The notes beneath the pieces were generated by a model. It did not search any database, was not told the origin of the DNA, and was given only the letters and a program-made list of their open reading frames with translations. This document shows, piece by piece, positions 33,413 to 46,208 of a stretch of 64,000 nucleotides of DNA. A program made the translations under genes and the position numbers. The first letter of the stretch is position 1. Each line of letters opens with the position of its first letter. The stretch lies in sequence record PQ306574.1, one strand, 5' to 3'. Source of the DNA: Escherichia phage vB_EcoM_PTE-Eco09.

Positions 33413-33652
33413 TTATTTAGGTAGTTGACTATCACTAGGGTTATCTTGCTCGTTACTATCTTCTGACTGATCTTTATTAAACTCCTTATAAAGTTCTTCC
33501 ACAAAACGATCATCAATTGGCGTATTGGTATAAGCCGCAAGACGACGAGCGCAATAGAAGAAAATTTTAGTGAGCATCTTTTCACTAATTAGCTTTGACA
33601 ATAATTTCATTCCGAAATTAGACAAAGCACCAATGACGATATTATAGACCAT
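33413..33652 (-). CDS. hypothetical small protein between fibre gene 37 and holin
   Basis: 79 aa; amphipathic N-terminus and acidic C-terminus; occupies the slot where T4 has gene 38. Confidence 0.4.
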   Translation of the reverse strand: MVYNIVIGALSNFGMKLLSKLISEKMLTKIFFYCARRLAAYTNTPIDDRFVEELYKEFNKDQSEDSNEQDNPSDSQLPK

Positions 33653-33692
33653 AGCCGTTTCTCCTTAGTAGTTCCCTTCCCTGGGAGTTTCC

Positions 33693-36635
33693 TTAATTCT
33701 TTTTAAGTTCCGCTAGTTCAGCTTTAACGGCTTTCAATTCTTCGCTCATTTCCTGAAACGCCTTAATTAAAAGAGCGTTGACAGCGGAGTTAGAAATTGT
33801 TAAGATCTCTTCTGGATTATCTGGATCGCCGATCTTAGAAGTTGTTACGGCTTCCGGCAATTCTTTTTCAAGATCCTGAGCAATAATACCAACTTCATGA
33901 GCAATGACAGTACGGTCGGTTAAAGATTTAACCTTGTCATAGGTGTATACCGTCAAGCGATTAACTTTATCGGTTGCATTCTCTTTATACTCTTCCTTGT
34001 TGATTTTAAGGCGAGCATCAGAACGAATATACACATCGTTAAAGTTACCATTGCGACCAGCTTGGAAATCACCGGAGGCGTTAAAGTCAAAGTTTGTGGT
34101 ATGAATATGAAGACGTGCCATAGCATTAGTAATAACACCACTAGGAACGTGTACACCCATTGCTGCGATGTGGTCGAAACCCCATTTGGTCGCTTTCCAT
34201 ACGTTATATGCGGAAGTTTGAGCATTAGGACAATCAACCAATAAGCCAGCAGCGCGAGTTTTCCATTCTGACCATGCACCACCTTGTACTTCTCCGCGAA
34301 TCAGGCCATTACCATCACCGGATACAGTGCCAGATTCCAACTGGATCATTTTATCCGCAAATTTCCACGCCTGGGCTTGTTTCTGACCACGGAAGCGAAT
34401 AACACCAGCATCATCGCAGTACATCAAGCCTAACTCTAAACCGTTTGGATCTCTAAACCAGATGTGCTTATTGCCAGTGCGTTTAAACTCAATATCAGCA
34501 CCGTTCAGGGTAATATTACCGCCAGTGTGAATTGCTTTAGGCTTAACAGTACCATTAATGCCAAACTCGATTAATTCAGTACCCGGACCACCCGCACGTT
34601 GAGTATACCAATGCCAGCCGCTTTCATCAGCACATTCAAATACTTGTTTACGAGCATCAGCGCCCCATGCACGAATATTGAAACTAGAAGTAGCTGTACC
34701 CTTACCCCAGCGAATCAGACCAGCAGATTCCAAATCACCGAAGAATTTAGTTTTAATCGCACCAGTTGCTAAAGTACGTTCAGTGGTGAAGTGAGCACCT
34801 TTACTATCTTCAAGCTGTATAACGTTATCACGAGCGTTATTGCTATCGCCCCAATGACTCAAACGGAAATAGTCGCGGGATTGTCCAGCACCAGCATCAA
34901 ATGTTAAATATTGGCCTTTAATGTATGTGTTTCCAGCAAAACGAGCAGCACGACTTGCACGTTCTAAGACTAATGCACCTTCTTTACCATCACCACCCAA
35001 AGTAACATTACCGCTACCCAGATTGTAAGTGAATGGACGATAGCCGTTCCAACCACCAAATTTATCATTTTCGGCAGTAGACAGAAGATATACGTTTTGA
35101 CCATCATTACGCCAGAATGCACCATAGTTACCGTAAATCATACGGAATGCATCACTGTTAGCAGCTACATATTGACCATTGGTGTATACAATTTTTGTTT
35201 TTCCTGTAGTCAAATTTACTTGTCCACTACCTTCCAAATCAAATGAGTTAGCACCAACATCATTACGCCACACAAAACCATCACTAGTACCATCCGCATG
35301 ACCGATATAACCACTACGTTGGTTTTTACCATCACGACGATCCCACCACGCCATATATGCAGCTTGACCAGTCTGTCGATGTAAAGTCATCGCATTACCA
35401 CCACCGTGCAATTCCATTTTACCAGTAATTACATATCCTTTATAATTACCCGGTATTGCACTATTAGAATCAATTCTAATAACTTCTGTAGAATCTGTAG
35501 CACCAGTAGCAAGACGATATACAGCACCCTGAACGGTTTCATGCCAGGTCATTTCATTATAGTTACTACGGAATTTACGAATATATTTTCGTCCAGTACC
35601 CCTATCATTACTCAAGTGAACAATATCATAACTGTTTTGTGTGTTATCGTCAAAACTCAACACACCTCGTTTGTTTTCGGTGTTGAAAAGAGTTACAGCA
35701 CGACCGCCAATAACATTATCACCAGCAGGACGTTCAGCAACAAAATCTGGAACGTCATGAACTACCAGATTAACACCAACACTTTTACCAAATTCAACAA
35801 TAACGTTATCAGTGTAACGCTGATATTTCACATAGATATCATAGTTATCACCAGAAGTATTAACAGCCAAAACATCAAATGATTTGTTTGTATTTCGGCG
35901 ATATGCAATAACGTTAACACCTTTAGGGCGACCATTTCCACTGCGAATAACAATTTCTACAATATCAACTTGATCGTATGCAGTAACGTTATATCCGTTA
36001 CCGCCATGAATACGGAAAAATACGCTAAGACCGTTTTGTGGAATCATTGCAGTTGCTAATTTAAAATAGCCTTCAACGATATCACTAGGAGATGTAGCAA
36101 GTTTAACGTTCTTAACAAACATACGGTCAACTTCTTGTTTGCTATAGACGTTCAATTCTCCTGGAGTTGGTTTATCACCTTCGTGATACATTTTATAGCT
36201 AAATGCTTTTTGACCTTCTCTATTATAGCCATAGGTTTCAACACGAGATCCAGCAGACGCATAACGGAAAGTAAATCCGCGACCGTGCGCTTTACCGGCA
36301 GAATGAGGAACGTTAAGAGTTAGATCCCTGAGTCCATCTTGACCATTGGTACGGAAAGCACCAAAGTAGTTAAGATCTCTCGCTGTCTGGTCTTCCAAAT
36401 AGTTAGCTGTTTTACTTAAGATATAATTATTACCTTTAACCTTACCCGCCATTGTAACATCGCGGTCATACACCGGAGGACAACTTAAATTGATAATATC
36501 ACCGGAATCATTTTTAGTAAGAAGATATTGATCCGCAAGGTTGATTGCCAATTCCCCCGGATTCATCGTACTAGCATCCGGTTTACGACCTTTAGTGCTA
36601 GTGCGTTTAAATTGGATTCTGCTTAAATCTGCCAT
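33693..36635 (-). CDS. 37: long tail fibre distal subunit gp37 with C-terminal intramolecular chaperone domain
   Basis: 980 aa; N-terminus MADLSRIQFKRTSTKGRKPDAS...GELAINLAD matches the T4 gp37 N-terminus; C-terminal SDARLKINKEEY plus coiled coil is typical of autoproteolytic chaperone domains. Confidence 0.8.
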   Translation of the reverse strand: MADLSRIQFKRTSTKGRKPDASTMNPGELAINLADQYLLTKNDSGDIINLSCPPVYDRDVTMAGKVKGNNYILSKTANYLEDQTARDLNYFGAFRTNGQDGLRDLTLNVPHSAGKAHGRGFTFRYASAGSRVETYGYNREGQKAFSYKMYHEGDKPTPGELNVYSKQEVDRMFVKNVKLATSPSDIVEGYFKLATAMIPQNGLSVFFRIHGGNGYNVTAYDQVDIVEIVIRSGNGRPKGVNVIAYRRNTNKSFDVLAVNTSGDNYDIYVKYQRYTDNVIVEFGKSVGVNLVVHDVPDFVAERPAGDNVIGGRAVTLFNTENKRGVLSFDDNTQNSYDIVHLSNDRGTGRKYIRKFRSNYNEMTWHETVQGAVYRLATGATDSTEVIRIDSNSAIPGNYKGYVITGKMELHGGGNAMTLHRQTGQAAYMAWWDRRDGKNQRSGYIGHADGTSDGFVWRNDVGANSFDLEGSGQVNLTTGKTKIVYTNGQYVAANSDAFRMIYGNYGAFWRNDGQNVYLLSTAENDKFGGWNGYRPFTYNLGSGNVTLGGDGKEGALVLERASRAARFAGNTYIKGQYLTFDAGAGQSRDYFRLSHWGDSNNARDNVIQLEDSKGAHFTTERTLATGAIKTKFFGDLESAGLIRWGKGTATSSFNIRAWGADARKQVFECADESGWHWYTQRAGGPGTELIEFGINGTVKPKAIHTGGNITLNGADIEFKRTGNKHIWFRDPNGLELGLMYCDDAGVIRFRGQKQAQAWKFADKMIQLESGTVSGDGNGLIRGEVQGGAWSEWKTRAAGLLVDCPNAQTSAYNVWKATKWGFDHIAAMGVHVPSGVITNAMARLHIHTTNFDFNASGDFQAGRNGNFNDVYIRSDARLKINKEEYKENATDKVNRLTVYTYDKVKSLTDRTVIAHEVGIIAQDLEKELPEAVTTSKIGDPDNPEEILTISNSAVNALLIKAFQEMSEELKAVKAELAELKKN

Positions 36636-38227: not shown

Positions 38228-38250
38228 AGTATTTATAGAATGTTAACAAA
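38228..38250 (-). promoter_or_regulatory. T4-type late promoter (TATAAATA) upstream of gene 36
   Basis: Minus strand reads CTATAAATACTC about 40 nt upstream of ATG 38196. Confidence 0.5.
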
Positions 38251-43346: not shown

Positions 43347-43928
43347 TTGTGTGAGGTGTTTGTTGTGGCAAAAACAAAATTTTGGGATATCGAGACACAG
43401 AAAGCGATAAAAGGTAGATTCTATCATGTCGATGGAATATTATACCATTTAAAGGATTCTGTAGCTGCTGGATTCCGAAAAGAAGGGTCCATATACAAAA
43501 AAGGTGATGTGGTAAGGGTATGTCTCCATAAAGAAGGATATTTATACTTTACATTTTACAACAATGGTCATAAACTTAATCTGTTTGTACATAGAGTTGT
43601 CTGGTTTTTAGAGTATGGTACTCAGGTTGAACGAATAGATCACATAGACCAAGACAAAACTAACAATAGACCGTCAAACATGAGAGAAGCAACCGAACAG
43701 CAAAATCAGTTTAACGTCTCAAAGAAAAAGGCTTGCCATAGCAAATATAAAGGTGTATCATTATCACCAAGCAAGAAAAAGCCGTGGAAGGCGTATATTG
43801 TTATCAATCGAAAGAATATACATCTAGGATACTTTGAGACAGAAGTTGAGGCGGCTAAGGCTTATGACCGTGCAGCACATGAAATAGTTGGCGAGTATGC
43901 TTATTTAAATTTTCCAAAAAGAGGATGA
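43347..43928 (+). CDS. free-standing HNH homing endonuclease with C-terminal AP2-type DNA-binding domain
   Basis: HNH_3-like HRVVWFLEYG...ERIDHIDQDKTNNRPSNM; AP2-like YKGVSLSPSKKKPWKAYIVINRKNIHLGYFETEVEAAKAYDRAA. No in-frame ATG; start is TTG 43347 or GTG 43356/43365. Confidence 0.7.
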   Translation: MCEVFVVAKTKFWDIETQKAIKGRFYHVDGILYHLKDSVAAGFRKEGSIYKKGDVVRVCLHKEGYLYFTFYNNGHKLNLFVHRVVWFLEYGTQVERIDHIDQDKTNNRPSNMREATEQQNQFNVSKKKACHSKYKGVSLSPSKKKPWKAYIVINRKNIHLGYFETEVEAAKAYDRAAHEIVGEYAYLNFPKRG

Positions 43929-45080: not shown

Positions 45081-45680
45081 ATGAAAGAACTTGAATTAAA
45101 ATACTATGCACACTCACAAATTGGCGTCGAAACCATCTGTGATTTGTGGGTGGCAATGTATGACGGGTACAATCTCTTAGACCGAGATAACATATTAAAA
45201 CACGAATTTTATTATGATACCGAAGATCATGCGCTACGTCAAAAAGGAATTTATGCACGACTTGACTGTAGAAAATCAGAGATCATGGTCAAAATGGGTG
45301 ATAATGAATCTGGACTATTCAACCGCGAGGAAATGACATTTTCAAATTGGGATGAGTTCGTCCATTTTATTGATAGTCTAGGGGTAAACTCCGACTATAT
45401 CACTGCAATAATGCAAGTAATGACATATCGCAAGTCATTGACTCTAGATATGGGTTGTGGTATAGTGGAAATGTGCAAAGACACTTTCTATTATGGCAAA
45501 GTAGGCGAAGGATTGGGAAACACTGCTCATTATGAACTTGAGTTCGAGTTAAAATCAGGTGATGAAAAAGCACTTGACATTATCCGAGAAATGATGCTAG
45601 AATATGTTGGTGACGATTTAAGTCCTAGCGAAATTTCAAAAGCTGAACGTGGTTTTCAATTAATGACGAAAGAGGGTTAA
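45081..45680 (+). CDS. CYTH-like (triphosphate tunnel metalloenzyme) domain protein
   Basis: N-terminal ExExK (MKELELKYY) and C-terminal ExExExK (HYELEFELK) signatures; 199 aa. Confidence 0.5.
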   Translation: MKELELKYYAHSQIGVETICDLWVAMYDGYNLLDRDNILKHEFYYDTEDHALRQKGIYARLDCRKSEIMVKMGDNESGLFNREEMTFSNWDEFVHFIDSLGVNSDYITAIMQVMTYRKSLTLDMGCGIVEMCKDTFYYGKVGEGLGNTAHYELEFELKSGDEKALDIIREMMLEYVGDDLSPSEISKAERGFQLMTKEG

Positions 45681-45685
45681 ATATT

Positions 45686-45961
45686 ATGACTGAACAGAAA
45701 AAAGAAAAAGTAGTATTCGATGAAAATGTACACGGAAATACCCTGGCACAACTGATTAAAGAAGCCAGCGATCAGAAAACCATTCAAGAAGCATATGGCG
45801 ATAAGATCAAAGAGATCAAACAGCGTGCTAAAGAAGAATTAGGCGTAGATGGTAAAATGTGGGGCATTCTGTTTAAACTGTATCACCAGCAACAGCGCGA
45901 AACCTTCGAAGCAGAACGCGACGAAGCGGTAGAACTCTATGATCGGGTGTTCAATGCTTAA
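45686..45961 (+). CDS. hypothetical protein (dsbA/33-region)
   Basis: 91-aa charged helical ORF. Confidence 0.4.
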   Translation: MTEQKKEKVVFDENVHGNTLAQLIKEASDQKTIQEAYGDKIKEIKQRAKEELGVDGKMWGILFKLYHQQQRETFEAERDEAVELYDRVFNA

Positions 45962-46208
45962 TGAACATGCGGTAAAAGCCGCGAATAAAACAGCAAACGG
46001 TCTTGCAATCGAAAAACTGGTTGTTGAAGAGGGATTGACTTATCTTGAAGCGACAACGCAGTTTGTAGAGGAAAACTCTATCGAATATGGTCACTATCAG
46101 AAGTATATTCCGGTGTCCATTATTGACAAGATCACACAAGAATGTATAGTAAATAGAACACTCAGGAAGGGAGTGATCGACGAACCAACCAACACTCTCG
46201 ATATTTAA
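45939..46208 (+). CDS. hypothetical protein (possible gp33-like late transcription co-activator)
   Basis: 89 aa; C-terminal ...EPTNTLDI resembles clamp-binding tails; position between rnh and 59. Tentative. Confidence 0.35.
   Translation: MIGCSMLNEHAVKAANKTANGLAIEKLVVEEGLTYLEATTQFVEENSIEYGHYQKYIPVSIIDKITQECIVNRTLRKGVIDEPTNTLDI

Follow-up and report, generated by a model that had tools for sequence, protein, structure and literature searches.

What caps the long tail fibre of a phage whose gene 37 is followed by a small open reading frame and not by gene 38? The question is raised by a 64,000-nucleotide stretch of Escherichia phage vB_EcoM_PTE-Eco09 (sequence record PQ306574.1; hereafter the window), for which a preliminary description had proposed that gp37 ends in a self-cleaving chaperone domain, that gene 38 is missing, and that the receptor-binding tip and its assembly differ from those of both T4 and T2. 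Our analysis indicates that the window very probably holds a long-tail-fibre tip module of the kind usual for an RB49-like Krischvirus, in which a cleaved gp37 is capped by a distantly encoded gp38.

Gene order at the fibre locus

The window derives from a Krischvirus, with 96–97% identity to RB49-like phages over 25 kb. Its fibre locus (Table 1) has the order found in RB49, gene 36–gene 37–79-aa ORF (ORF79)–t, and encodes a gp37 of 980 aa against 979 aa in RB49; the allele nonetheless differs, with 86.7% DNA identity over the 4-kb locus and likewise 86.7% nucleotide identity between the two copies of gene 37. The open reading frame list confirms the earlier statement that ORF79 alone separates gene 37 from holin t; between the stop of the one and the start of the other, no terminator-like site was found. 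Going upstream from g37, ORF79 and t, the first T4-type late-promoter motif is TATAAATA, and an AAGGAG sits 8 nt ahead of the ORF79 ATG. The gene in the gp36 position, g37, ORF79 and t appear to be co-transcribed, and ORF79 is probably expressed late along with the other three.

Table 1. Features of the fibre-tip locus, in window coordinates
Feature	Position	Strand	Basis
Holin t, 218 aa	32723..33379	-	Pfam PF11031, E=8e-61; phrog_860
79-aa ORF (ORF79), RB49p252/dc5 homologue, PHROG 402	33413..33652	-	ORF list, PHROGs
Gene 37, long tail fibre distal subunit, 980 aa	33693..36635	-	ORF list; phrog_1699 'long tail fiber protein distal subunit', E=3e-185
C-terminal intramolecular chaperone (Peptidase_S74), gp37 residues 872–980, autoproteolytic release predicted	33696..34022	-	PF13884, PDB profile matches, AlphaFold2 and Foldseek
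Lys877 codon, predicted general base, Ser+5	34005..34007	-	Invariant in homologue alignment
Ser872 codon, predicted scissile/nucleophile serine	34020..34022	-	Cleavage predicted between Arg871 and Ser872
DVYIR, gp37 residues 867–871, final strand of mature gp37, on which the gp38 N-terminal domain is predicted to dock	34023..34037	-	Read from sequence
gp34-like trimerisation domain within gp37, residues 426–537	35025..35360	-	Pfam PF21446, E=1.5e-41; PDB sequence matches to T4 gp34
Tail fibre gene in gp36 position, upstream of gene 37, 496 aa	36706..38196	-	phrog_16472 and phrog_1425; RB49p250 homologue
TATAAATA, T4-type late-promoter consensus, upstream of gp36-position gene	38230..38237	-	

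gp37 ends in an intramolecular chaperone

The C terminus of gp37 is an endosialidase/T5-type intramolecular chaperone with a Ser–Lys pair, for which autoproteolysis is predicted; here the preliminary description was right, and profile, conservation and structure searches agree. Pfam Peptidase_S74 (PF13884, 'Chaperone of endosialidase') matches residues 872–931 with E=1.4e-11 and 45 bits, over a curated cut-off of 22 bits and across profile positions 1–58 of 58, which puts this sequence match far beyond chance. The domain comprises 109 aa at the extreme C terminus of a 980-aa fibre protein. Searching the PDB with the last 130 aa as a single sequence reached S16 gp37 alone (1e-4), plus chance TolR matches, and a profile was therefore needed to detect MyRF and GA-1: built from 16 homologues, it matched S16 gp37 (6F45_A, 4e-13), the MyRF ICA (7DC3, 2e-6) and GA-1 (3GUD, 0.02). 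An AlphaFold2 model of residues 851–980 (mean pLDDT 83) shows an alpha/beta core followed by a 31-residue C-terminal helix (model residues 99–129), which, in a structure modelled as a monomer, is consistent with the C-terminal coiled coil proposed earlier. Comparing this model with the PDB by Foldseek gave 11 best matches that are all IMC/ICA structures (7DC3, 3GW6 and 3GUD), the top one with E=5e-6 and a TM score of 0.68.

The predicted cleavage context, DVYIR^SDARLK, contains the Ser872/Lys877 pair. Ser872 aligns both with residue 1 of the crystallised GA-1 chain (3GUD) and with the cleavage site of the homologous S16 chaperone domain (6F45), which reads S^SDRRIK against R^SDARLK in the window; S16 gp37 is cleaved at DLNVS^SDRRIKK (PMC7917993). 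The five-residue step from serine to lysine recurs in T5 pb1, at Ser1264/Lys1269 (PMC4690869). We give hardly any credence to the reading that the domain has degenerated, no longer cleaves and remains attached to the mature fibre. All homologues that span the Ser872 column of the alignment have this serine, and Lys877 is invariant; taken in 40-residue blocks, residues 881–980 share 95–100% identity with RB49 although the tip beside them diverges, a sign of strong constraint. Retention would also be at odds with what is known of related fibres, since an uncleaved T5 fibre is unable to bind its receptor (PMC4690869) and the gp38 site of S16 becomes accessible only through cleavage (PMC7917993).

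The region before the cleavage site combines a conserved end with a variable body. Directly ahead of the site stands the conserved docking strand, DVYIR (DLNVS in S16); the motif DVYIR^SDGRLKI has been discussed for T2-like phages, DVYIR being described as the tip on which gp38 docks (PMC7917993), and these five residues are identical in the window gp37. The approximately 110 residues ahead of the site are just 62–75% identical to RB49, and the blocks of gp37 that vary between the two phages cover residues about 161–360, 681–720 and 761–880. Given this low identity, the tip of the window gp37 may differ functionally from that of RB49 to some degree.

Gene 38 is expected at a distant locus

A tblastn search of the 64-kb window with RB49 gp38 found no homologue (best E-value 5.7). 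The correspondence between the window and RB49, however, places the expected g38 position some 21 kb past the left edge of the window, so its absence there carries no weight. The gene expected at that position would encode roughly 258 aa and lie in the interval between dam/nrdC and rI/tk. In RB49 the gene is RB49p079 (45367–46143), annotated 'g38; similar to T2 and RB69 gp38 adhesin', and its profile scores (PF05268, E=7e-72; Gp38_N, E=6e-18) identify a true GP38 adhesin. In the RB49 lineage, approximately 55 kb separate it from gene 37, whereas gene 38 directly follows gene 37 in S16, T2 and Ox2. A distant g38 accompanies the contiguous junction of chaperone-bearing g37 and ORF79 in all 41 database records that have this junction, and these are among the 43 records that hold the distant locus. 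By analogy with these relatives, we infer that the phage of the window carries g38 in its own genome. The claim that no gene 38 is present thus stands for the locus and for the window, and very probably fails beyond them: RB49 and all 41 junction records have the gene at a distant locus.

Neither the displacement of g38 nor the order of events at the RB49 tip is new. A small ORF was reported in the place of the displaced RB49 g38 (Trojet 2011, PMC3157838), and RB49 gp37 was described as carrying a self-cleaving chaperone, the gp38 monomer attaching afterwards, with host-range mutants mapping to gp38 (E230K/Y231S; Efimov 2022, PMC9569957).

A self-cleaving fibre can in principle work without an adhesin. 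T5 pb1 (4UW7/4UW8) and the K1F endosialidase (3GW6) likewise carry a C-terminal Peptidase_S74 chaperone that is released after trimer folding, the T5 version being longer (133 aa) and bearing long hairpin 'tentacles'; unlike fibres of the RB49 type, they bind or cleave the receptor themselves, with no separate adhesin. The phage could on this model lack gp38 altogether, its gp37 being a self-sufficient fibre of the T5 pb1 type whose cleaved tip binds the receptor directly. The lack of a GP38 homologue in the window, receptor binding by T5 pb1 with the same type of chaperone and without an adhesin (PMC4690869), and the variation of the gp37 pre-cleavage region among relatives would all fit. We nevertheless consider it highly improbable: a distant g38 in 41 of 41 relatives with the same junction almost excludes it, the DVYIR docking strand is conserved, and the expected g38 position falls outside the window. 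By analogy, too, a gp38 adhesin in every close relative and the mapping of RB49 host range to gp38 (PMC9569957) argue against such a fibre.

Krischvirus G5211 encodes a gp37 with an intramolecular chaperone directly followed by gp38, and S16 gp37 (6F45) and Ox2 gp37 have the same chaperone domain with gene 38 adjoining. At the DNA level, the chaperone-coding part of the window shares 75–77% identity with gene 37 of T2-like phages, Ox2 among them, that have an adjacent gene 38; ahead of DVYIR, the Ox2-type fibre shaft has no sequence relationship to the window gp37. Comparison of these sequences indicates that the intramolecular chaperone of gp37 and a gp38 adhesin normally go together (as in S16, Ox2 and G5211), the one being no alternative to the other. 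In fibres of the S16 and T2/T6/Ox2 types, a monomeric GP38-family adhesin caps the cleaved gp37 tip.

The fibre-tip pathway consequently differs from that of T4, as had been proposed, but very probably not from that of T2; the co-occurrence of chaperone and gp38 in S16, Ox2 and G5211, together with the retained DVYIR, speaks against the latter part of the proposal. T4 gp37 occupies the same long tail fibre position and has gp34-like and gp37-like shaft domains in common with the window gp37, yet it lacks an S74 domain and ends in a receptor-binding needle tip. The gp38 of T4, a chaperone, bears no relation to the GP38 adhesins (PMC3157838). We rejected a T4-type tip (gp37 needle plus adjacent gp38 chaperone), because the window gp37 ends in S74 and the adjacent ORF is the 79-aa PHROG 402 protein; among PDB sequences, the window gp37 matched shaft domains of gp34 and of the Mu fibre alone, and the T4 gp37 tip was not among its matches.

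ORF79 is a separate small gene

Krischvirus retains ORF79 as the 3'-terminal gene of its tail-fibre operon, immediately before holin t. It is 96% identical to its RB49 homologue, and PHROG 402 has the invariant core F..K...E...FF..A...T.T..DD.F. Precomputed annotation gives it PF26925, and none of Pfam, NCBIfam and PHROGs supplies a named function. A phmmer search against 1.84 billion representatives returned as its strongest matches giant or repetitive proteins, which we discarded as spurious (repeated short low-complexity stretches, for example KKIWACRARRALSND and YKYTDTPADKRS); the true relatives comprise only about seven small clusters of 62–76 aa.

The position of ORF79 in the g38 slot suggests that it might replace gp38, either as an adhesin of a new kind or as a chaperone devoted to the tail fibre, and its homologues in Felixounavirus and Kolesnikvirus do directly follow tail fibre or tail genes. 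A replacement is nonetheless very unlikely. ORF79 is kept unchanged in G5211-type Krischviruses, where g38 stands between g37 and ORF79, and also in KFS-EC; a homologue in a Vibrio phage comes after the endolysin, not after a fibre gene. Profile searches found no similarity to the GP38, T4 gp38 or Tfa families, and the AlphaFold2 model (mean pLDDT 59) consists of three low-confidence helices and a disordered acidic tail. Because it persists where g38 is adjacent, ORF79 is not a g38 substitute: on sequence evidence, PHROG 402 is a separate conserved small gene.

ORF79 was not called as a holin, its best 17-residue Kyte–Doolittle mean (1.26) being below a typical transmembrane value, and no convincing embedded lipoprotein (o-spanin) ORF was seen beside the Ounavirinae homologues. 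Handling of the released chaperone domain, or a coupling of late assembly to lysis, are possible roles; that ORF79 has such an accessory part in maturing the fibre or in timing lysis is an improbable proposal.

Proposed working of the fibre tip

For the preferred reading, an RB49-like tip with a distantly encoded adhesin, homologues and literature suggest the following course. gp37 would be made as a 980-aa precursor, whose last 109 residues, the Peptidase_S74 intramolecular chaperone, would trimerise via the C-terminal helix and serve as folding template for the beta-structured distal fibre. After correct folding of the trimer, Ser872, activated by Lys877, would bring about self-cleavage between Arg871 and Ser872 and expose the DVYIR tip. 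One copy of gp38 would then dock on this tip through its Trp-containing N-terminal domain and act as the receptor-binding protein; its gene would lie in the hyperplastic region approximately 55 kb from gene 37, outside the window. Both the cleavage of gp37 and the docking of gp38 in this phage are predicted by analogy.

This tip arrangement is very probably of the already described T2/S16 type. The practical lesson is chiefly one of caution: when host range is predicted for RB49-like therapeutic phages, or such phages are engineered, the receptor determinant to examine is gp38 at its distant locus, not the gp37 tip.

Organization of the fibre locus

The minus-strand order runs from a fibre protein gene in the gp36 position through gene 37 and a 79-aa ORF (hereafter ORF79) to holin t, assignments that Pfam and PHROGs bear out (see table). 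The interval 33413–34030 singled out in the preliminary description comprises ORF79 and the final 109 codons of gene 37, and its statement that ORF79 alone lies between gene 37 and t, with gene 38 (g38) locally absent, is borne out by the ORF order. RB49-like phages (genus Krischvirus) match the window at 86–91% identity over the 4-kb fibre locus and 96–97% over the surrounding 25 kb. Database look-up found neither an identical record nor an exact gp37 elsewhere; the arrangement is already published, and the window carries a new allele of it.

Features of the fibre locus (window coordinates)
Feature	Position	Strand	Match
Fibre protein in gp36 position, 496 aa	36706–38196	minus	
gp37, 980 aa	33693–36635	minus	phrog_1699 'long tail fiber protein distal subunit', 3e-185
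ORF79, 79 aa	33413–33652	minus	phrog_402 (sole match; PHROG of no known function)
Holin t, 218 aa	32723–33379	minus	PF11031, 8e-61

A chaperone domain terminates gp37

Residues 872–931 of gp37 cover all 58 profile positions of Pfam Peptidase_S74 ('Chaperone of endosialidase'; E=1.4e-11, 45 bits, cut-off 22 bits), the outcome of the profile search that the preliminary description had proposed as a check. Its SDARLK motif places the serine at residue 872 (codon 34020–34022) and the lysine at residue 877, with a carboxy-terminal piece of 109 aa from Ser872. Aligning 16 homologues shows an invariant Lys877, and every sequence that covers the Ser872 column carries that serine. A profile of this alignment matches S16 gp37 (6F45_A, 4e-13), the tail fibre in 8JOV (7e-8), the MyRF ICA (self-cleaving chaperone) domain (7DC3, 2e-6) and the GA-1 neck-appendage chaperone (3GUD, 0.02), with Ser872 aligning to the first residue of the 3GUD crystal chain. 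AlphaFold2 modelling of residues 851–980 gives a small α/β core and a 31-residue terminal helix (mean pLDDT 83); when it was compared with the PDB by Foldseek, each of the 11 best matches was an intramolecular chaperone (IMC/ICA) structure, led by 7DC3 (E=5e-6, TM 0.68), then 3GW6 and 3GUD. The Ser/Lys(+5) spacing is that of Ser1264/Lys1269 in T5 pb1, where the serine is activated by the lysine and cutting at Thr1263–Ser1264 needs a correctly folded trimer (PMC4690869). Because Pfam, the Ser/Lys pair, profile matches, model, Foldseek and T5 spacing all agree, the endosialidase/T5-type domain described from sequence is confirmed, and we infer that gp37 undergoes autoproteolytic cleavage.

Relative to RB49, gp37 is mosaic (40-residue blocks): identity is 95–100% at residues 361–480 and 881–980, 45–53% at 281–360, 53% at 681–720 and 62–75% at 761–880. 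Exchange of tips by recombination could be anchored in the near-invariant chaperone domain. Residues 426–537 (window 35025–35360) match the carboxy-terminal trimerization domain of the proximal fibre protein gp34 (PF21446, 1.5e-41; PDB 4UXE, 5NXF), so proximal and distal half-fibres share modules.

Evidence for a displaced gene 38

The earlier claim of 'no gene 38' holds for the locus and the 64-kb window, where tblastn with RB49 gp38 found no homologue (best E=5.7), and is made very improbable for the phage as a whole by its relatives. RB49 carries g38 as RB49p079 (45367–46143, 'g38; similar to T2 and RB69 gp38 adhesin'; PF05268 GP38 7e-72, Gp38_N 6e-18). Window position 1 corresponds to ~24 kb in RB49, and the window crosses the RB49 record ends to reach ~124 kb; g38 is therefore expected ~21 kb past the left edge, ~55 kb from gene 37. 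The contiguous junction from the gene 37 stop to ORF79 (window 33560–33860) occurs in 41 phage records, and the distant RB49-type g38 locus in 43, comprising all 41 of these and both KFS-EC records; the 15 Krischvirus records without the contiguous junction also lack distant g38. This strongly argues that g38 in this genome is displaced rather than absent.

Immediately upstream of RB49 g38, which sits in a hyperplastic region, lies a G+C-rich stem-loop, GCCCCTTAATTGGGGC, then a T-run (L002:46145–46185, RB49 record); no late-promoter motif TATAAATA directly precedes the gene. The element resembles PeSL promoter-terminator motifs, proposed mediators of shuffling (PMC4122927). Trojet et al. described RB49 g38 as displaced, with a small ORF in its stead (PMC3157838), and Efimov et al. 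describe self-cleavage of RB49 gp37 ahead of attachment of a gp38 monomer (PMC9569957). Krischvirus Gp38 adhesins have been treated as receptor determinants, with a gene position that varies across the genus (PMC12032242), and RB49 host-range mutants isolated by Efimov et al. carry gp38 E230K and E230K/Y231S (PMC9569957).

Variants of the tip module and ORF79

Three Krischvirus fibre-tip arrangements were seen (window 33413–36635; L003:2490–5197, G5211; L004:5213–8715, KFS-EC), all keeping the S74 domain in gp37: (a) RB49, g37–ORF79–t with g38 ~55 kb distant; (b) G5211, a T6/Ox2-like g37 end with g38 adjoining and the distant slot empty; and (c) KFS-EC, whose g37 has an Ox2-like end and which carries a further 107-aa ORF besides distant g38. 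This 107-aa ORF (L004:5591–5914, between g37 and the ORF79 homologue) is Gly/Trp-rich, lacks a window counterpart and matches nothing in Pfam or PHROGs; it might represent an alternative, compact adhesin. Among the 15 junction-lacking records, four (G5211, G2494, LF73P4 and FL20) have a ~0.9 kb insertion between g37 and ORF79, annotated as adhesin in three and unannotated in the fourth. G5211 reads g37 (S74 domain), g38 (PF05268, 1e-65), ORF79 homologue, t; its g38 (L003:2490–3289) is annotated as two overlapping ORFs, a 37-aa piece (MAVVGVPGWIGSSAANETGQRWMS...) resembling the start of RB49 gp38 and a 245-aa GP38 body, a split that could reflect a frameshift, sequencing error or mis-called start. 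In phiS and UPWr_E1 the match also breaks off at the g37 end, and distant g38 is apparently missing.

ORF79 as a stand-in for g38 was rejected because it is retained beside the adjacent g38 of G5211. It has a strong Shine–Dalgarno sequence (AAGGAG, 8 nt upstream) and >94% conservation across Krischvirus. Distant homologues (30–47% identity) occur in Felixounavirus, Kolesnikvirus and a Vibrio phage (L005:2992–3558, L007:2992–3536, L006:2480–3213). The invariant core of ORF79 is F13, K16, E24, F31, F32, A35, T42, T44, D47, D48 and F50. The Felixounavirus and Kolesnikvirus copies lie directly 3′ of tail fibre or tail genes and 5′ of a 111–123-aa ORF (phrog_4038; hydrophobic amino terminus, weak coiled-coil-type Pfam matches), which in Ounavirinae closes the tail-fibre operon; the homologue of Vibrio phage 1.038.O directly follows an endolysin. 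These contexts hint at a connection with lysis as much as with fibres. Modelled by AlphaFold2 at low confidence (pLDDT 59), ORF79 has three predicted helices and an acidic tail predicted to be disordered; its hydropathy falls under usual transmembrane values. T4-type late-promoter motifs on the minus strand occur only before the gp36-position gene (38230–38237) and g34 (43539–43546), and no terminator-like site was found from the stop of gene 37 to the start of holin t; ORF79 therefore probably belongs to a late g36–g37–ORF79–t transcript.

Tip assembly probably resembles T2 and S16

S16 gp37 autocleaves at DLNVS^SDRRIKK, and the aligned T2-like DVYIR^SDGRLKI is predicted to be cut after DVYIR, so that conserved gp38 tryptophans would insert into the triangular tip that remains (PMC7917993). 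The window sequence at this site is DVYIR^SDARLKI, with cleavage predicted likewise, and RB49 gp38 starts with MAIKAGWVGSSAVSETGQRWM, containing two Trp residues. In many Tequatrovirus and Mosigvirus phages, gene 37 shares 75–77% identity with the chaperone-coding DNA (window 33731–34052); one of them is Ox2, whose classic record has gene 37, gene 38 and t consecutive. As protein sequences, the window, RB49, Ox2, KFS-EC and G5211 chaperone domains align readily from NDVYIRSD on; the preceding shafts are of two unrelated types. The preliminary description had set the tip apart from both T4 and T2. The difference from T4, with its needle tip and gp38 chaperone, stands; that from T2 for want of gp38 does not, as g38 is displaced in relatives. 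The gp37 chaperone domain and gp38 occur together, and the tip assembly pathway is therefore unlike that of T4 and probably matches that of T2/S16.
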